40,618 nucleotides of DNA from a virus (IMGVR_UViG_2718218168_000006), one strand, 5' to 3'. Shown: positions 1 through 36,288, counted from the first letter of the stretch. Translations and numbers: made by a program. Notes: generated from the letters alone by a model not told the origin.

Positions 1-582
1 TTACCCTATAGGTGCTACTGGCCATTCAATATCCGGTGCAGTTGATGTATCAACACGGTTCAGCAACACCCGATACTTTTTCCAGGCTTCCAGCAACAAG
101 GTTTCTTCCTCCGTTGCGATTTCCAGATCTACAGCATCCTGAAGTGGCGCAATATGCTCACTGGCTACCTGCATCAGGCTGTTTTTTGTTTCTTCCGCCT
201 CCCGGATCCGGAACAGTTTTTCTGCTTCCGTATCCTTCACCCAGGCTGTGCCGTTCCACTTCTGATATTCCCCTCCCGGCGATAACCAGGTAACATTTTC
301 CGGTAACGGACCGAGTTCAGAAATAAATAACGCGTCGCCGGAAGCCACGTCATAAACCGTTTTACCCCGATGATCTTCAACGAGATGCCACGATGCCTCA
401 TCACTGTTGAAAACAGCCACGAAGCCTGCCGGAATATCTGGCGGTGCAATATCGGTACTGTTTGCTGGCAGACCGGTATGAGGCGGAATATATGCGTCAC
501 CTTCACCAATAAATTCATTAGTTCCGGCCAGCAGATTATAAATTTTTATGGTCCGTGGTTGTTCAGTCATTCTGAATGCCAT
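1..582 (-). CDS. tfa: tail fiber assembly protein (lambda Tfa-like)
   Basis: 193 aa ORF starting [20 protein letters not shown], near-identical in pattern to lambda Tfa; its start overlaps the stf stop. Confidence 0.85.
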
Positions 583-3500
583 TATGCAAGCCTCACAATA
601 TAGTTAAATGCGATGTTTTTGACGGTGTTTTCCGCGTTACCAGCAGCGTTAACGGTGATGGTGTGTCCATGTGAACCAATCGCAACGGAGTGCGTATGAG
701 CACCAATACCGACAGTATGCGCGTGTGCACCTGCAGATGCTGCTGTGCCGGACAGTGAATGGCTATGATTACCATCTGTACTGGTATTCGCTAACCACCC
801 CGTAGACATACCTACTGAGCCTTGTACACCCCAGGTATTTTGACCTGAGCTTGTATAACCATATTGATAAGTATCTTTAAAAACACTGGGGTTAAATCGA
901 CGGCCATCTCTATGGCTGTGATTACCAGCTGCATTCGTGCTGCCACTTAAACTATGGGTATGCGCACCAGTGTTATTCGTGGATTTAGTGCCGTAATCAA
1001 ACGACGATGTGGTTTTCGTCCCCAAATCCGTACTGGATGCGCTGGCGCTGTGGGTATGCGATTTAATGCCGTCCTGTTCCTGAGACAATACGGCCCGACC
1101 ACTGGCAGGTTTGCCCTTAATCGTCCAGCCACGCATATCAGGGATCACGCCTGACGGATAAGCCGCTGCAAGTTTCGGGTATGCAGATTTGTCAAAAGCC
1201 TGCCCCTGCATCAGGGCATAGCCAGACGGAACGGTATCTGATGGCCACGGGATTGGTGCGCCAGGCGGATAAAACTGCTCTGATGGCGTATAGAGTGAAT
1301 AAACTGTACCGTCCGTTAACCCTTCCGGCTTATTAGCAGAATATGCTGGTGACGTATGAATCGTCACGCTGGCATTACTGGTATAATCCCATTGAATATT
1401 TACACCAGTCGCATAATTTCCGATTGCAACGTAAATATCGTAAGTATCACCAGATGTATTAACCCAGGCAAAATTTGTAAACCCTGCCGATGTGCGCTGC
1501 CATAAAGCACCAGTAATCCCCTTCGGATTACCATTACCTGCACGCAAAACAAGTTCAGATATACCTGCCTGTTGAGGTGAACCGACGTTATATCCAGCCC
1601 CACCAATCAACGTAATTGAAACAACAGAACTCGCCTGCGGCATGGTTACCGTTGCCAGCTTGAACCATCCAGCACCACCAATAAAAGACATTGTTGTGGA
1701 GTTGATCGTGCCTATAGACCGTGGGTTAAGTTCAATATCTTTAGAACCATCAAACGAGACGCCGTTGATAGTACATGCTGTCTGCAACTTGGTCGCTGTC
1801 GCTGCATTACCGGTAGTGTCTTGATTACCTTTTGTATTCACACCAGGCAAATCTATATCGGCTGAACCATCAAAGGATACACCACCTATGTTTATTGAAC
1901 TTGCTAATTTCGTTGCTGTTGCTGCATTTCCTGAAAGGCTTGAAACAAACTGATGTGAGCAATAATAACCACGTCCATTTTTAAAATCCAGAATGGTTTG
2001 AGTATTTGTACTTTCTGCTACTGGATCTGTGGCCCCCCACTTATAAGTGGTTTGACCAACTGCATAATCAGCCGTTGGAACAATTACGTTCAAGCCCTCC
2101 TCAGCAAATATATTGATAGGGAATGCTCTGGCTTCAACGTAAAATACACTACACAAATCGTCATCTTTCACACTTGAAATAATCGAGTGTATAGCTCGCT
2201 CAGCAGTAGAATATATTGAGAAAAAACCAGCCGCATATGAACCGCGATCAGACCAACCGCCAGGCATAACAAACCCATTAAATTCACAATTATTCATGGC
2301 GTATCCGCCAGCTGAGGAATAAGTAGTTATCACAACTCGTGAGGCTAATTCATCGGTACTGCCTCCAGATCGGCGAAAGACTATAGGATACCACTTACCG
2401 CTTACTGCATTTGCAGGAGCAGAGAAAGTGTATTTTCGCATCCCCTTTTTCTGATCCACTTCACCTTTGCTGTAAACATTAATGTTACTCAGGAAGCGGT
2501 CCTTGTCGGGAATATCAGCACCGTTCTGGTCTTTCTGCAGACGTTTCTCTGCATTGTCATAGGCTGCTTTTACTGCCTTTGGCGTTGCCGCCAGTGACTC
2601 GGAAGTGCTGTTGGTCGCACTGCTGAGCTGTACTATCCCCTTTTTCGTCGTGCTCGCATCCTCAAGCGCCACGGCGGATGCAATATCCTCTGCCCGTTTT
2701 GCTGCTGTCTCGGCGCGCGTTGCCGCGGATTCTGCTGTACTTTTGCTCTGTGCTGCCGCCGTCGCACTGCCAGCTGCCTCTGTCGCTTTCGTGGATGCCG
2801 TCGTGGCGCTGCCCTTCGCTGCTGACGCCTGTCTGGTCGCCTCATCTTTTGAAGCAGACGCAGATGAGGCCGATGACGCCGCCGAACTGGCGGACGATGC
2901 GGCAGCCGTTTTTGAGGATTCTGCGCTGGTTTCCGACGCTTTCGCGTTCGTTTCGGATGTCTTCGCTGCGGAAGCAGACCTCGCTGCTGCGCTGGCCTGT
3001 TCAGTGGCTTCGCCAGCCTTCGTTGTGGCTGTTGAAGCAGACGATGCTGCGCTTTCTGCCGATTTTCCGGCGGCGGTGGCACTGGCTGAGGCCTGCCCGG
3101 CACTTGTTGACGCAGCACTGGCAGACGACGCAGCCGCTGTTTTTGAACCTGCCGCAGCTGAGGCGCTCTGTCCCGCTGCTGTTTCAGAAGACTTAGCGTT
3201 CGTCTCGGACGTTTTTGCCGCCTTCGCGGAATTTCCTGCCGCTGTTGCCGAGGAAGCTGCGCTACTGGCGCTCGAGGATGCGTTCGTTTCTGATGATTTT
3301 GCCGCCTCTTTTGAAGCCGCCGCATCCCGGGCTGAGGTGGCAGCTTCTGACGCTTTCGTAGTCGCGGTGGATGCAGAAGTGGCTGCTGATTGTTGTGACG
3401 CTGCAGCATTCGTTTCTGACGTTTTCGCGGCACTGGCACTGGTAGCTGCCGCGCTTTTTGAGGACTCTGCAGCGGCAGCACTTTTTGATGCTTCAGTGGC

Positions 3501-25066: not shown

Positions 25067-25141
<75 letters not shown>

Positions 25142-25144
25142 ATA

Positions 25145-25220
<76 letters not shown>

Positions 25221-25222
25221 AC

Positions 25223-25299
25223 TGGACCGCCACCGGGGACTCGAACCTCGCACACTCAACTTAAAGGGTTGACGCTCTTTCCTGATGAGCTAGTGGCGG
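25223..25299 (-). tRNA. atypical tRNA (anticodon loop CCTTTAA, apparent anticodon UUU; C at position 33)
   Basis: 7-bp acceptor stem CCGCCAC/GTGGCGG, T-loop TTCGAGT, encoded CCA; C33 and one T-stem mismatch make identity uncertain. Confidence 0.4.
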
Positions 25300-25300
25300 T

Positions 25301-25376
25301 TGGTGGCCCTTGCTGGATTTGAACCAGCGACCTGGCGATTATGAGTCGCTCGCTCTCACCACTGAGCTAAAGGGCC
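25301..25376 (-). tRNA. tRNA-Ile2/Met (anticodon CAU), ileX/ileZ-like
   Basis: GGCCCTTTAGCTCAGTGGTGAGAGC..CTCATAA..GGTTCAAATCC..AAGGGCC-A-CCA; resembles E. coli ileX. Confidence 0.7.
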
Positions 25377-25521: not shown

Positions 25522-25641
25522 AAGTTGTGTGGCGAAGCGACCACTCTTAACAGATTAAGATAGTTTTTGCGTACGCGTTAGTGATTTTTTCATAATTATC
25601 TGTATCCTGTGGCTATTTCTCTTGCGCAAAGGATGCTTTTG

Positions 25642-26520
25642 ATGACGCAGCAACTCGAAAACATGCCAATAACAGAAATCGAAATTGCCTACGGTGGAGA
25701 GGCATACGCAGATAATCAGATCGACGCGAAAACATTAGGCGAAGCCTTAACCTCTCTTAGTGCCCTGATTGAACACGCCGAAAAAATAATTAATGGCGAA
25801 ACAGCAGAGCCGAAAGTCAACATCAAGGCAACAAAAGAAGGTTCATTTACTTTGCTTGTTGCTGTGATGGGGAGCATAAAAACTATTAACGCCCTTGGCC
25901 TCGTTGCAGGTGGTGGAGTTGCCGCAGGTGGCGTACTCGGGATAATCGAATGGCTCAAAGGGCGTAAAATCAGCTCCATTGTCGTCGATGAACAAAAAGA
26001 TACAGCAGAAATCGAAGTGGATGGTGAGAAGGTTAAATGCAGTAACGACATTCAAAAATTAATAACCAGTCCAATCATCCGAAAAGAACTGGATAAATTA
26101 ATCTATAAACCCCTGCAGACTGAAAAACCATCCACGTTCTCAGTTTCACAGCAGAAGCATAAGGTAGTCAGGGTGACGCAAGCTGAAGCAGTAAGTTTTA
26201 AAACTGCAAAATCCACCTTTGTCGAGAAAACGCACGTAACGACACGCCAAGCTAATGTACATTTTGCTAATGTTCGATTCAAGCAAGGCAAAAGCTGGGA
26301 TATCATCCTGCCAAATGGCGAAGAAGTTAGCGCATCTATGAAAGATGAGGCTTTTCTTGAACGGGTTGAACACAACCAAGCAGCATTCTGTAAGGGTGAT
26401 CTTTTTGTTGTAGAACTGACAGAAACAACAAAAGAAACAAATGGCGCGCTGTCTAAACCACGCTATAGTATTACTAAGGTTATACGCCACAGAGCGGCGG
26501 CAGATAGGAAACTACTTTAA
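25642..26520 (+). CDS. hypothetical protein with central Gly-rich hydrophobic segment (first gene of 3-gene cargo operon)
   Basis: Track ORF 25609..26520; probable ATG at about 25642 (MTQQLENMP..) after AAGGA; contains FTLLVAVMGSIKTINALGLVAGGGVAAGGVLGIIEWL; AT-rich relative to flanking phage genes. Confidence 0.6.
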   Translation: MTQQLENMPITEIEIAYGGEAYADNQIDAKTLGEALTSLSALIEHAEKIINGETAEPKVNIKATKEGSFTLLVAVMGSIKTINALGLVAGGGVAAGGVLGIIEWLKGRKISSIVVDEQKDTAEIEVDGEKVKCSNDIQKLITSPIIRKELDKLIYKPLQTEKPSTFSVSQQKHKVVRVTQAEAVSFKTAKSTFVEKTHVTTRQANVHFANVRFKQGKSWDIILPNGEEVSASMKDEAFLERVEHNQAAFCKGDLFVVELTETTKETNGALSKPRYSITKVIRHRAAADRKLL

Positions 26521-26523
26521 ATC

Positions 26524-26769
26524 ATGTCAATCCTAAGCATTATGCTTTACATCACTGTATTCATGGCTGTCGCAGCGACGGTCAGATATGCTGTGCTTAG
26601 GTTCTTGGTTTGGGTAAAGCCGAATGCGTATATTGAACTAACCTACACCGATCCTGAAGGCAGAACCGCTAAAAGGAAAGTCAGCGTTAGAAACGAAAAT
26701 GACGCAGAAGAGTTGGCGCTACTGCTACGCGAACTCAAAACTCGCAACGAAGCAAGTGCAGGAAGGTGA
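26524..26769 (+). CDS. small membrane protein (1 predicted TM), second gene of cargo operon
   Basis: 81 aa ORF MSILSIMLYITVFMAVAATVRYAVLRFLVW..; starts 3 nt after the upstream stop. Confidence 0.55.
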   Translation: MSILSIMLYITVFMAVAATVRYAVLRFLVWVKPNAYIELTYTDPEGRTAKRKVSVRNENDAEELALLLRELKTRNEASAGR

Positions 26770-27156
26770 ATGGCGAACACTAAATCCTACCTGGCAATGC
26801 AGGCATGGTTTACCACCCTTATCACTGCGGGATTGAATTTCCTTTTTGACTGGCTTCCTCAATTAGCCTTCTTCAAATCATTGGCGCCTGGAGCTGCTGT
26901 CGGCTTATCTCATGTGGTAATTCTTCTTATCGCTTACATAGGTTTGCCTACGCTTAATGATGTAAGAATGAAAAGGGAAATAAAAACGGCCAGAAAATTC
27001 ATCACGAACTGCCTGGCCAACCCTAACCTAACACCAGACCAAATTGCGCACTACAACCAATGTCTTATCGATCTAGACAATAAGCTATTAAAAAACATAA
27101 ATATTCGTATTGATGCTTTATCTGACGCCGAATCGAAAGCTCAAGCAAACGAGTAG
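26770..27156 (+). CDS. small membrane protein (2 predicted TM) with helical C-terminal tail, third gene of cargo operon
   Basis: 128 aa ORF; ATG immediately follows the upstream TGA; convergent with and ending about 13 nt from the Q stop. Confidence 0.55.
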   Translation: MANTKSYLAMQAWFTTLITAGLNFLFDWLPQLAFFKSLAPGAAVGLSHVVILLIAYIGLPTLNDVRMKREIKTARKFITNCLANPNLTPDQIAHYNQCLIDLDNKLLKNINIRIDALSDAESKAQANE

Positions 27157-27169
27157 TAACAGTCATAAC

Positions 27170-27519
27170 TTATGATAGAATCAAGCATATACATCCATCA
27201 ATAAAGCCTAATGCAGTTTGCAGCTCCTTTCTTATAGTTCCATCTGAGCACCTGCGTTTCTTCGCGATTGAGCGTAGAGAAACACCAATAACAAAGTGAG
27301 CTATGAGCAGCTCATATTCCTCTGGTTTATACTTTCGCAACCGAGCCACACAACCGTCTATCATGATGCCTTCATCATCATCACACTGGAGACGTGACTT
27401 TTTGCCATGTGGCAAAAGCCCCTTGAAGCCCGCTGCTATCGGTTGCCAATCGACACCGCTATTTTCTGCTGCAGCCCATGCCCCCAGCGATCTAAAACCT
27501 CATACATATCACGCCCCAT
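27170..27519 (-). pseudogene. Q: late-gene antiterminator Q (QuuD-like), interrupted by a frameshift
   Basis: N-terminal frame MGRDMYEVLDRWG.. (ATG overlapping rusA stop) stops after 27 codons; C-terminal track ORF 27170..27415 is open upstream as ..AWAAAENSGVDWQPIAAGFKGLLP..; fusion at a C-run near 27481-27485 restores the QuuD-like RWGAWAA motif. Confidence 0.75.
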
Positions 27520-29449: not shown

Positions 29450-29842
29450 TTACTGCCCAGTTTTAACGAAGTTTTTAAAGGAAACAATTGCCTGATAGGG
29501 GTTTGGTTGACAGCCAAACATATTATCGCAAAAAGGCTTGATGAAAATTCTTGCGGATCCATCTTCATTTGGCATTTTACTCACTTGATAAGCGAGGAAT
29601 GGGCTATTTGGTGAAGGGTTATAAGTGGAAATTAGCGTGTCTGTCGCCGTTTGAATTTTCCATGAGGAATTATTAGCCAACCAGAATTGCGCTCGTTTCC
29701 AATAAAAGTCACATTGCTTTTCATCATTACATGTTAGTGGCTTCATTGCTTCTGCTTTCAACGCTGGATCGACCTTTGCTGCACACCCTCCCAACATTAC
29801 TGTTGCAATCATTACACCTGCGACTAAAACAAGTTTCTTCAT
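29450..29842 (-). CDS. lipoprotein (signal peptide plus lipobox LGGC), cargo gene
   Basis: 130 aa ORF MKKLVLVAGVMIATVMLGGCAAK.. with 4 further Cys; own terminator downstream. Confidence 0.7.
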   Translation of the reverse strand: MKKLVLVAGVMIATVMLGGCAAKVDPALKAEAMKPLTCNDEKQCDFYWKRAQFWLANNSSWKIQTATDTLISTYNPSPNSPFLAYQVSKMPNEDGSARIFIKPFCDNMFGCQPNPYQAIVSFKNFVKTGQ

Positions 29843-29985
29843 CTCCCTGCCCCATCAATAAAAGTTCGGTTCTCTAATAACTAGAGTTAATCAACGGAAA
29901 AAACGCCGAAGCGGGTTAAGTGCGGGTGCGTTGAGGATGCCTGACACATCAGAGGTGGCGAGGGATTTCTCCCCCGCCAGGTCTC

Positions 29986-30141
29986 TTACTCCTCAGGTTC
30001 GTAAGCTGTGAAGACAGCGACCTCCGTCTGGCCGGTTCGGATTCGTACCTCGCAGAGGTCTTTCCTCGTTACCAGTGCCGTCACAATGACGGTAATACAG
30101 ATGACGATCAGGGCGACTAACATCGCCTTTTGCTGCTTCAT
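29986..30141 (-). CDS. hok: Hok/Gef family type I toxin
   Basis: 51 aa MKQQKAMLVALIVICITVIVTALVTRKDLCEVRIRTGQTEVAVFTAYEPEE, near-identical to HokD/RelF as I recall it; AAGGAG RBS. Confidence 0.85.
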   Translation of the reverse strand: MKQQKAMLVALIVICITVIVTALVTRKDLCEVRIRTGQTEVAVFTAYEPEE

Positions 30142-30352
30142 AGCCTGCTTCTCCTTGCCTTTCGGCACGTAAGAGGCTAACCTAGATTTGCCGTTCATAG
30201 ATTGAGCCTCAGATTAATGTTAAGCGTCTTGCCGGACGCGTAATGTTAACTGGGGCTTTTCTCTATCTGCCTTTTGGTGTTCATGCCTGAGACAGATAGC
30301 CTCAAGCACCCGCTGCAATTCTACTTAACTCTCCTTTTCCCGCAAACCGTTT

Positions 30353-30436
30353 TTATCCCCAGCGGCAAATCGAATACACCACCAGCGCCACCGCCAGTGC
30401 GATTCCTACCGTTGTGAATGCTTCAGACCAGGTCAT
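30353..30436 (-). CDS. candidate small hydrophobic peptide (27 aa)
   Basis: ATG with GGAGG about 10 nt upstream; MTWSEAFTTVGIALAVALVVYSICRWG; below the ORF-track size cutoff. Confidence 0.3.
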   Translation of the reverse strand: MTWSEAFTTVGIALAVALVVYSICRWG

Positions 30437-30477
30437 CTTAAAACATCCTCCACGCTTATCAGTCCATTTCGTTTCAG

Positions 30478-30948
30478 CTAATCCATCGCCTTCTCCGGTA
30501 ATTTGCAGTCCGGCTGAGCTTTTTTCAGTTGACTGACCAGTCGTTTAACCCACATTGTTAATTCGCTAACCTGATTACTGGATGCTAGTGGATTGTCAGC
30601 TTTACCCAGAATGGCAGCACAGCAGGCCTCTTTGAGTACCCAATCAACAGCATCTTTCCATGATCCTGTTTCGGCTGGCGGATTTTCACGCTTTACCTGT
30701 TCATAAAAGCGCACGGCTTTAACCAGTCCTTCTGATGTCACCGGGACTGGCGGGGCAGTGAATAAGGCCTGAATCTCATAGCTCGGCCTGTCGTTGCAAT
30801 CCTCTTTTGTCGGTACATATTTCCAGTCACCAACCCACATCTTCTCCTGAAAGTCCGTAACGCTTTTTTTCACATAGCGATATCGCCATGCAACTGGTTT
30901 TGCCTGCCCTACCGTTTCATGCCCTTCCTGATAATTAATCTCGCTCAT
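30478..30948 (-). CDS. hypothetical protein
   Basis: 156 aa ORF; start overlaps the stop of the upstream small ORF. Confidence 0.6.
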   Translation of the reverse strand: MSEINYQEGHETVGQAKPVAWRYRYVKKSVTDFQEKMWVGDWKYVPTKEDCNDRPSYEIQALFTAPPVPVTSEGLVKAVRFYEQVKRENPPAETGSWKDAVDWVLKEACCAAILGKADNPLASSNQVSELTMWVKRLVSQLKKAQPDCKLPEKAMD

Positions 30949-34259: not shown

Positions 34260-34898
34260 ATGAGCAAGCAAACAATATCTGAACGCATAACCCAACGTAT
34301 GCATGCGCTAAACCTGAAAGGCAAAGACCTTGTCAATGCCACTGGCGCATCAAAAGGCTCCGTAAGTCAATGGATGAACGGTGGAGGAGCGCCGTCCTCG
34401 CGTTACATAAGTTCACTGGCAAAGATATTGAAAGTAAACGAAAATTGGCTTCTTAATGGAGGAGAGTTAAATACAGGTGATTCGCTTGATCTATCTTTAC
34501 CGCCGATAAAAACGGTTCCGCTACTATCACTTCAGCAGGCAGCAAGCTGGAGTGATTATATGAAAAATTCCTCAATAACCTCTTGTGTGCAGCTTGTCGG
34601 AGAAATCCCGGCCAATACCTTTGCAGTTGTTCTAGAGAGTGACAGTATGTCAACATCTGGTGGGGGAGTTTCCATCCCAAATGGTTCAACAGTTTTTGTT
34701 GATCCCGATCGAACCGTACAACCAGGAAATATTGTCCTTGCCTTACCCAAAGGGACCACAACACCTGTCATTCGTAAACTGGAGATAGAAGGGCCGGATA
34801 TTCTTTTAGTCCCCACGAATCCTCGCTATCCTTCAATTATGCTGGATGATCTATCTTGCATATTGGGCGTATGCTTTAAAATTCAACAAGATATTTAA
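34260..34898 (+). CDS. cI: CI-like repressor (N-terminal HTH, C-terminal S24 LexA-type peptidase domain)
   Basis: 212 aa ORF; HTH region and Ser-Lys dyad context (ESDSM..K); no SD upstream of ATG. Confidence 0.85.
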   Translation: MSKQTISERITQRMHALNLKGKDLVNATGASKGSVSQWMNGGGAPSSRYISSLAKILKVNENWLLNGGELNTGDSLDLSLPPIKTVPLLSLQQAASWSDYMKNSSITSCVQLVGEIPANTFAVVLESDSMSTSGGGVSIPNGSTVFVDPDRTVQPGNIVLALPKGTTTPVIRKLEIEGPDILLVPTNPRYPSIMLDDLSCILGVCFKIQQDI

Positions 34899-35724: not shown

Positions 35725-36288
35725 TAGCTAACCAACGAAGCTAAGGTTGGTAATTAAGGAGTTCTCCACGGGTGAGGTGGAGTGCGTGTGCCGGACATGG
35801 GTGAGCATCCGGCACTGACAGTTTACTGAAAGGATATGTCCCTGAAAAGTCAGGGCATAACGCGAAAGCGCACGGCGAAATTGGTCTCTCTGTACGGTGT
35901 CGTTAAATTTAGTTCGACCGTGCGCTTCCGGTTGTGGCACTCCGCGAAATGGCGCGGAGGTAAGTATGGCGGGGTTATTCCTTCCCCGTTGAGGACACCG
36001 GGTTGTCAGGTTGACCATACGCTTAAGTGACAACCCCGCTGCAACGCCCTCTGTTATCAATTTTCTGGTGACGTTTGGCGGTATCAGTTTTACTCCGTGA
36101 CTGCTCTGCCGCCCTTTTTAAAGTGAATTTTGTGATGCGGTGAATGCGGCTAAGCGCACGCGGAACAGTTAAAACCAAAAACAGTGTTATGGGTGGATTC
36201 TCTGTATCCGGCGTTAATTGTTAACTGGTTAACGTCACCTGGAGGCACCAGGCACCGCATCACAAAACTCATTGTTGAGGGCGCGATA

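Follow-up and report, generated by a model that had tools for sequence, protein, structure and literature searches.

The closest described relatives of the locus analyzed here are Hok-type toxin-antitoxin systems of a plasmid, of Stx2 phages, and of the Escherichia coli K-12 chromosome. In the hok/sok (parB) system of plasmid R1, for which a full-length/truncated hok mRNA model has been described (PMC9841398), tac/fbi pairing closes the mRNA, ucb masks the Shine-Dalgarno (SD) sequence of mok, the 5' hairpin is metastable, activation proceeds by 3' processing, and the Sok antisense RNA targets the mok start region. The hokW-mokW-sokW module of the Stx2 phages 933W, Sp5 (VT2-Sakai), and Min27 is a working toxin-antitoxin pair: HokW, for which an identity of only 44% to R1 Hok has been reported, acts as a toxin and is counteracted by sokW; upon mitomycin C treatment, sokW RNA vanishes, HokW is made in a RecA-dependent manner, and phage release is about two times that of a deletion mutant (PMC8621323). 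The hokD (relF) gene of the K-12 prophage Qin is cotranscribed with relBE (PMC3598666). Here, we followed up an annotation made from sequence alone (the sequence-only reading) of the viral DNA IMGVR_UViG_2718218168_000006, a 40,618-nucleotide (nt) stretch referred to as the window, to whose first letter all window coordinates refer. Based on our analyses, it is likely that the locus around position 30000 consists of two independent modules lying side by side, i.e., a complete hok/mok/sok module and a separate 27-codon gene for a putative membrane microprotein. The hok part is known biology, namely a prophage module of the hokW/hokD type, and the peptide is modestly new in that it is an unnamed member of the broad phage/bacterial class of small membrane proteins. 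An open reading frame (ORF) listing and direct reading of the sequence place the hok coding sequence (CDS), the 70-codon mok frame, and the 27-codon ORF all on the minus strand (Table 1).

The hok/mok/sok module

The sequence-only reading had recognized a Hok-family type I toxin locus resembling HokD/RelF, and this identification held. The Hok protein scored 82.6 bits against the Pfam family HOK_GEF (PF01848; cut-off, 22), matched phrog_251 ("MokW-like host killing"; E = 2e-32), and is identical to K-12 HokD at 49 of 51 positions and to HokW at 45 of 51. Its C terminus is of the HokD type (FTAYEPEE), while that of HokW reads FVDYESEK. RefSeq names an identical protein HokD. The NCBIfam subfamily model NF007279 gave a score of only 47.6, which is below its cut-off of 73; the name HokD, therefore, rests on sequence identity and on the RefSeq naming. 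Residue Cys30 is hard-coded, and the Tyr47 codon is part of a TACG motif, at which A-to-I editing by TadA recodes Tyr to Cys in hokC, hokD, and hokE (PMC5630033).

The leader of the hok mRNA was delimited with the Rfam family RF01794, which matched over its full model length at 30136-30311 on the minus strand (112.4 bits; E = 6e-25; gathering score, 59). Although this family is named "sok," its model aligns to the hok-sense strand between GGGUGCUUGAGG and the hok AUG, and it thus delimits the hok mRNA leader, which has a length of 170 nt (30311 to 30142). The roughly 330 bp that had been proposed for the leader do not form a single unit: the rest of that interval, up to 30470, contains the hok promoter (30318-30346), the 27-codon gene, and its ribosome-binding site. 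By contrast, the expectation that the leader holds mok and the Sok RNA was borne out, and both elements, which the sequence-only reading could not delimit, have now been placed. The putative transcription start, at the first position of the RF01794 match, is located 6 nt from the -10 hexamer. Homology served to place the hok and sok promoters, as a consensus scan gave none. The block AAAACGGTTTGC...TAGAAT is kept upstream of hok across unrelated contexts, and TAGAAT, TCGAAT, or TACAAT is present at a constant distance from GGGTGC in many different upstream contexts.

Homology to hokW-sokW predicts a Sok RNA that has its own promoter and is antisense to the mok initiation region. The predicted RNA corresponds base for base to the annotated 71-nt sokW of 933W (65 of 71 positions identical). 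Its putative layout is a 5' tail that covers the AUG and SD of mok, followed by a long hairpin and a U-run, and in the predicted fold (-31.8 kcal/mol) the 5' tail is free. The -10 hexamer of sok matches the hexamer mutated in the sokW "pro-less" construct, as reconstructed from primers YO-421/422 (PMC8621323). Compared with the Rfam consensus, the hairpin that forms the Sok terminator and the hok leader stem (30214-30249) contains 16 inserted nt (gcguccggcaagacgc), which lengthen the stem and are also present in hokW.

We folded the putative full-length hok mRNA (30311 to 29888) and a truncated version lacking the 3' end including fbi. The full-length RNA had a minimum free energy of -163.6 kcal/mol (z = -5.7 relative to shuffled sequences); in this fold, the 5' and 3' ends pair, with nt 1-12 (tac) paired with fbi, and the mok GAGG is paired with ucb. 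The fold of the truncated RNA switches: ucb is now engaged by tac, and the mok SD is paired with a box downstream of it (mRNA positions 134-139). The tac sequence is invariant among the collected copies. Thus, the tac-fbi/tac-ucb switch of the R1 hok model is reproduced in silico. As the experimental support comes from R1 and hokW, we infer by analogy that the switch would be active in the strain carrying the window.

A comparison with the three described systems supports that the module is complete. The hokW-mokW-sokW module has the same architecture; its leader is identical at 158 of 170 positions (93%), and its Sok region is identical at 67 of 73 positions over window coordinates 30190-30262. 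In 933W and Min27, mokW has 70 codons and is in frame with the 51-residue Hok, which is the arrangement of mok in the window, while mok of R1 is in a frame other than that of hok. The window differs from hokW in Mok codons 2-5, in the 3' end past fbi, and in its setting, because it lies in the nin region of a Qin-like prophage with flanking genes unlike those of hokW in 933W. K-12 hokD shares the prophage type and the DUF968/Q neighborhood with the window and is identical to it at 152 of 156 positions of the CDS and at 60 of 62 positions of the 3' untranslated region with fbi. However, this homology is confined to the segment between the hok SD (17 nt ahead of the AUG) and the terminator; K-12 hokD has no homologous leader, i.e., no hok promoter, tac, ucb, mok start, or sok, and the window, unlike the K-12 locus, lacks relBE. 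Because the homology to K-12 starts at the hok SD and the whole leader is common to hokW, the window locus is the intact version of what K-12 keeps as a fragment. Judged by the same alignments, it is also a mosaic in which the leader is hokW-like and the coding and 3' region hokD-like. The regulatory logic outlined above for R1 is predicted in silico to be the same in the window, with the difference that the R1 system is on a plasmid and the window module in a prophage. The hok part on its own adds little beyond a well-preserved example of the hokW/hokD lineage that illustrates what the truncated K-12 hokD lost.

By analogy with these systems, the module would operate as follows. A weak promoter would give rise to an mRNA of about 414 nt in which, with tac and fbi paired and the mok SD masked by ucb, the message would be neither translated nor bound by Sok. 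Trimming of the 3' end would remove fbi, allow tac to pair with ucb, and free the mok SD. Sok would then pair over the mok start of the trimmed mRNA and block it; in the event that Sok is gone, translation of mok would bring ribosomes into hok, and the resulting 51-residue Hok would depolarize the inner membrane. That Hok is toxic and suppressed by Sok in the window module is expected from hokW-sokW, and a possible trigger would be read-through of the induced early operon opposing the sok promoter.

The 27-codon gene

The sequence-only reading had described a hydrophobic 27-codon ORF with a GGAGG upstream of hok as an additional part of the hok locus. The ORF is present, with GGAGG 10 nt before the ATG and its stop codon (30353-30355) 212 nt upstream of the hok AUG, but its assignment to the hok locus did not stand. 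Because the stop codon is upstream of the hok -35 element, by at least 7 nt, the ORF is outside the hok transcript, and it is not part of hok/sok; moreover, about 57% of its copies have no adjoining hok, and most sampled hok loci lack the ORF. Instead, the ORF belongs to the preceding operon, in which its start codon and the stop codon of the gene before it normally overlap (ATGA). Whether it is a chance ORF had been left undecided by the sequence-only reading; as detailed below, it is conserved in related loci, and we conclude that it is very probably a real gene.

Using a pattern scan of IMG/VR, we collected 128 copies from other loci. Of these, 123 have all 27 codons intact, and 113 of the 123 follow a frame that is open for 50 codons or more and terminates in an ATGA overlap. 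GGAGG or a one-base variant occupies the same position in nearly all listed upstream classes, despite the differing upstream genes. A hok leader was found within 120 nt downstream in 52 of 120 copies; the downstream contexts without hok are many, and several have a terminator hairpin directly after the stop codon. Greedy k-mer clustering sorted the upstream and the downstream flanks into 18 classes each, which are combined in many ways; these numbers are for qualitative use because the clustering merges some classes. Homology among the copies begins at the SD/ATG and breaks at or just after the stop codon. The ORF is a gene-sized mosaic module. In a new sample of 89 prophage hok loci, the ORF accompanied only 14; because loci collected before were excluded from this sample, the actual proportion is closer to one fifth. 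In several hok loci from IMG/VR without the ORF (L143, L147, and L202), the gene before the hok promoter ends in a hydrophobic, transmembrane-like C terminus (for example, ...AIAAVMAIYCLAVVLMDRLSD followed by the stop codon), which may be a coincidence or a recurring neighborhood.

Among complete E. coli genomes, a DNA search with the 84 nt found the gene in 1,609 of 5,426 (~30%), at 3,060 places, with up to seven per genome and 162 places on plasmids. Using tblastn, the peptide was found in 92 to 94 phage records, with lambdoid, P1-like, and rV5-like phages, Stx phages included, among the carriers. In PLSDB, it is encoded on 180 plasmids, 173 of which are non-mobilizable, with E. coli, E. albertii, E. 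fergusonii, Salmonella, and one Klebsiella as hosts; the one plasmid inspected is an IncY replicon of ~100 kb, which is the size of P1-like phage-plasmids. In a scan of species-representative genomes, the N-terminal motif of the peptide was detected only in E. coli and Shigella flexneri. A tblastn search against the K-12 prophages Rac, DLP12, and Qin returned noise only and no copy; absence from the three lambdoid prophages of K-12 may be why small-protein surveys in K-12 missed the peptide.

The neighbors vary among carriers. In 933W, the gene lies between L0139 and sokW/mokW/hokW; in E. coli 2011C-4251, between a DUF551 gene and hok; in phage ArgO145, between another gene and a reverse-strand toxin-antitoxin pair; in the rV5-like virulent phage TH18, between "EaA" and ea22; and in BP-4795, PhiR12_5, and PhiR5_1, between ea22/DUF551 and DUF4222-xis-int. 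It is also carried by the P1-like phage 813R1. In seven of the eight annotated records inspected, the upstream gene ends 4 nt into the ORF (ATGA), and BP-4795 has a 1-nt TGATG overlap. The ORF is unannotated in all inspected records with differing neighbors, and RefSeq skips the gene. The exact consensus peptide is present in a few GenBank genomes, where it is labeled "bacteriophage protein" or "hypothetical protein."

Evidence that the sense frame is coding comes from the variants. Eight variants, of which the most divergent pair is 46% identical, all have 27 codons and, down to ~46-59% identity, keep the start codon, stop codon, and SD; they follow the pattern M-[TSN]-W-P/S-[ED]-A-x3-[VL]-G-x3-A-x6-S-x2-R-W-x. 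One variant has an in-frame deletion of two codons. A substitution test on a minimum spanning tree of 56 distinct sequences (147 substitutions) gave a ratio of the non-synonymous to synonymous rates of 0.20 in the frame of the ORF and 1.4-1.8 in four other frames. Replacements in the sense frame exchange hydrophobic for hydrophobic residues and have a mean BLOSUM62 score of +0.39, compared with -0.52 in the antisense frame. The assignment of the sense frame as coding is based on the start, stop, SD, module boundaries, and type of replacement rather than on the rate ratio.

The peptide consists of one hydrophobic helix (residues 6-24; mean Kyte-Doolittle value, 2.2) that is bordered by Trp3 and Glu5 at one end and by Arg25 and Trp26 at the opposite end. 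Based on the positive-inside rule, an N-out/C-in topology is predicted, with Glu5 outside and Arg25 inside, and the G11-x3-A15 and A13-x3-A17 spacing suggests a helix packing face. We read the product as a probable small single-pass inner-membrane protein. Searches of Pfam, NCBIfam, PHROGs, PADLOC, and PDB gave no significant match; the best subthreshold scores were 14.7 bits for TIGR02115 (KdpF; cut-off, 26.85), 13.9 for DUF883_C (cut-off, 27), and E = 0.019 for phrog_4612, and PADLOC and PDB returned no hits. With KdpF-type subunits, TisB, and Ibs, the peptide shares a length of ~27 residues, one Trp-flanked hydrophobic helix, an N-terminal acidic residue, and a C-terminal Arg, and these small membrane proteins are likewise usually missed by annotation pipelines. 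It differs from type I toxins in that we observed neither an antisense RNA of its own nor a structured leader and in that the gene is translationally coupled to varied upstream genes.

The gene is usually the last or near-last cistron of a block of phage accessory genes and would be translated from its own GGAGG, plausibly aided by termination-reinitiation at the ATGA overlap with the preceding gene. In the window, this arrangement is altered. The upstream gene of 156 codons (phrog_660, function unknown) ends in a premature TAG where its relatives carry TAT and stay open for 15 further codons, until a TGA at 30433-30435 that overlaps the start codon of the peptide; in strain G749, which has a stretch 100% identical to that in the window, RefSeq lists the gene as a pseudogene without its C terminus. 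As the TAG is located 41 nt upstream of the peptide ATG, stop-start coupling is lost in the window, and some translation from the remaining GGAGG is plausible. As a best guess, the peptide might bind or modulate a host membrane protein during phage development or lysogeny.

The peptide gene matters somewhat more than the hok part, being present in ~30% of complete E. coli genomes and having no curated family. It is also part of a published construct. The insert of pBAD18-hokW-sokW (primer YO-432; PMC8621323), which we placed by comparison with L006/L248 (positions about 1495-1520), starts with GAATCA-ATGACCTGGCCTGAAGC, i.e., with the start of the 27-codon ORF. Thus, the hokW-sokW clone of Takada et al. 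begins at the peptide ATG and carries the ORF, which went unnoticed, and dissection of prophage hok loci should control for it.

Alternative readings of the locus

Several results weigh against the interpretation of the locus as an intact toxin module next to a translated microprotein gene. For the toxin module, a scan for consensus promoters and terminators over 29800-30600 gave no match, the hok and sok promoters being below threshold; the stem of the hok terminator is shortened relative to K-12 hokD by a change of GG to TT (GCGGGTTTTT in K-12 and GCGTTTTTT in the window); and chromosomal hok loci (hokA/B/C; K-12 and other strains) have been reported not to confer post-segregational killing (bioRxiv 10.1101/2025.08.07.668861). 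For the peptide, the rate ratio is equally low (0.22) in the antisense frame with shared wobble positions, and the ratio alone does not, therefore, pick the strand; in addition, the peptide did not appear in the supplements to two studies, the Sakai Ribo-seq paper and an Enterobacteriaceae microproteome study. The weakened terminator stem and the reported lack of post-segregational killing would be expected if hok/sok were an inactive relic in the strain carrying the window, as are the chromosomal hok loci of K-12, and the prophage does look partly decayed, with an 81-residue Q-like ORF and an upstream pseudogene. Still, we regard a relic as unlikely: the promoters, tac, ucb, mok, the hok ORF, fbi, and Sok are all intact and in register, the leader is 93% identical to that of the experimentally active hokW-sokW, nothing is missing in the way that it is in K-12 hokD, and the 751-nt stretch around the locus is identical in several strains, with near-identical copies in hundreds. 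A pattern scan called no terminator at 29898-29915, and given this and the weaker stem, read-through from hok into the lipoprotein-like ORF downstream seems possible.

The results for the peptide bear on the possibility that the 27 codons are untranslated and that the conserved 84 nt instead function at the DNA or RNA level, for example as a recombination "linker" or 3' untranslated region, or as part of an opposite-strand gene. The segment is indeed found where phage mosaics join, in many combinations of flanks; it is left unannotated by RefSeq and in most phage records; and neither the two supplements nor a search of a literature library for the peptide sequence yielded published evidence of translation. 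Against this, variants with as little as ~46-59% amino acid identity retain exactly 27 codons, the ATG, the stop codon, and a GGAGG at a distance of 7-10 nt, the two-codon deletion is in frame, and homology is bounded by the SD/ATG and the stop codon. A start that lets the antisense frame span the module exists in only 21 of 99 distinct contexts, and the window is not among them; the remaining 78 have no usable start. Together with the hydrophobic-for-hydrophobic replacements in the sense frame, these observations make an untranslated element highly improbable. A fusion or frameshift product with the upstream gene was considered separately and rejected, as the clustered 121-residue DUF551 proteins lack the peptide (a clustering artefact) and the upstream genes come from unrelated families and have no shared slippery site.

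If the gene is translated, its product could still be a working part of the hok system, e.g., a second toxin, a modulator of Hok or immunity factor, or a leader ORF for read-through into hok. Both products are small membrane peptides, the ORF precedes the hok transcription start by 41 nt in the same orientation with no terminator in between, and the clone of Takada et al. starts at its ATG. Moreover, a hok leader is near 52 of 120 copies, while 9.3% of Escherichia phages carry hok anywhere (bioRxiv 10.1101/2025.08.07.668861). However, more than half of the copies have no adjoining hok, many lying directly before a terminator hairpin or other genes; only 14 of the 89 sampled hok loci have the ORF; the hok promoter, transcription start, and all known regulatory elements are downstream of it; and the peptide-hok junction does not vary in sequence, as would fit a single past event that brought the two together and was followed by spread. 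We therefore consider a role in hok/sok very unlikely and favor two independent modules. A further, speculative reading, to which we give little weight, is that the peptide represents a hitherto undescribed family of membrane microproteins whose members are distributed over Escherichia phages of the lambdoid, P1-like, and rV5-like types, are made by stop-start coupling to whichever accessory gene comes before, and have a specific membrane function, either modulation of the Hok pore or of lysis timing where the two are adjacent or a block of a host membrane protein or of superinfection. If a membrane function in induction or lysogeny were true, a widespread phage microprotein would join a class with few known roles.

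Prophage setting and neighboring features

Both modules are placed in the rightward early ("nin") operon of a Qin-like lambdoid prophage of E. coli, between the replication genes and DUF968/RusA/Q, all of which are on the minus strand; hok and the peptide ORF have the orientation of the operon itself. On this strand, the neighbors are Cro, YdaT, the replication initiator, and DUF977, followed by the 156-codon gene, the peptide ORF, hok, the lipoprotein-like ORF, DUF968, RusA, and the Q-like fragment, and DicF, dicB, and ydfABC are on the other side. The 751-nt stretch around the locus is present with 100% identity in four complete E. coli chromosomes, including that of strain G749, and parts of it are present in 4,952 of 5,426 complete E. 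coli genomes.

Table 1. Coordinates of features of the locus and its surroundings in the window
Feature	Position	Strand	Basis or remark
Terminator-like hairpin and U-run (CCCGCUUCGGCGUUUUUU)	29898..29915	-	Aligned to K-12 hokD terminator
Putative full-length hok mRNA, ~414 nt	29898..30311	-	+1 placed at 30311 from start of RF01794 match
fbi element (CCUCAACGCACCC)	29924..29936	-	Pairing with tac, 12 base pairs and one bulge; conserved in K-12 hokD and hokW
hok CDS, 51 residues, HokD-type toxin (MKQQKAMLVALIVICITVIVTALVTRKDLCEVRIRTGQTEVAVFTAYEPEE)	29986..30141	-	Pfam PF01848 and identity to K-12 HokD
mok ORF, 70 residues, in frame with hok	29986..30198	-	ORF list; GAGG 9 nt upstream
TACG motif at Tyr47	30000..30003	-	Read from sequence; TadA A-to-I editing site in hokD
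hok SD region (AAGGAGAAG)	30148..30156	-	Read from sequence; K-12 hokD homology starts here
sok promoter: -35 TTGCCT (30155-30160), 17-nt spacer, -10 TAACCT (30178-30183)	30155..30183	+	Read from sequence
Predicted Sok antisense RNA, ~71 nt	30190..30260	+	Homology to sokW misc_RNA of phage 933W
mok SD region (CUGAGGC; GAGG at 30207-30210)	30206..30212	-	Folding: hidden by ucb in full-length RNA
ucb/anti-SD (GCCCCAG)	30250..30256	-	Folding: partner of mok SD in full-length RNA, of tac in truncated RNA
tac element (GGGUGCUUGAGG)	30300..30311	-	Folding: partner of fbi in full-length RNA, of ucb after 3' removal
hok promoter -10, TAGAAT	30318..30323	-	Read from sequence
hok promoter -35, TTGCGG (16-nt spacer) or TTTGCG (17-nt spacer)	30340..30346	-	Read from sequence; block AAAACGGTTTGC...TAGAAT
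27-codon gene, putative single-pass membrane microprotein (MTWSEAFTTVGIALAVALVVYSICRWG)	30353..30436	-	Copy conservation, module boundaries
GGAGG ribosome-binding site of 27-codon gene, 10-nt spacer	30447..30451	-	Read from sequence
Premature TAG ending upstream 156-codon gene (30478..30948)	30478..30480	-	Relatives carry TAT
cI-like repressor	34260..34898	+	

The lipoprotein-like ORF directly downstream of hok (29450-29842, minus strand) encodes 130 residues with a lipoprotein-type N terminus (MKKLVLVAGVMIATVMLGGC); it matches phrog_16082 (function unknown) and, weakly, Cor superinfection-exclusion proteins (E = 0.007). The sole signal for a Q-like antiterminator is the 81-residue ORF at 27170-27415 (minus strand), which covers positions 53-138 of a PHROG profile of 156 positions; Q in the window may, thus, be truncated, and this stretch is unlike that of strain G749, in which Q is full. 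After the Q-like ORF, there are three plus-strand ORFs of unknown function (25609-27156; phrog_3243, 27630, and 26468). A cluster of four tRNA genes (25067-25376, minus strand) is located upstream of the lysis genes and comprises Gly-UCC, Thr-UGU, Lys-UUU, and a tRNA with a CAU anticodon, the Lys-like tRNA having the lowest Rfam score (44 bits). The DicF small-RNA gene (36063-36114, plus strand; 77 bits) adjoins dicB/ydfD-like genes, as in K-12 Qin. Finally, the very start of the window has a full-length match to the Rfam family IS009 (41-239, minus strand; 229 bits).

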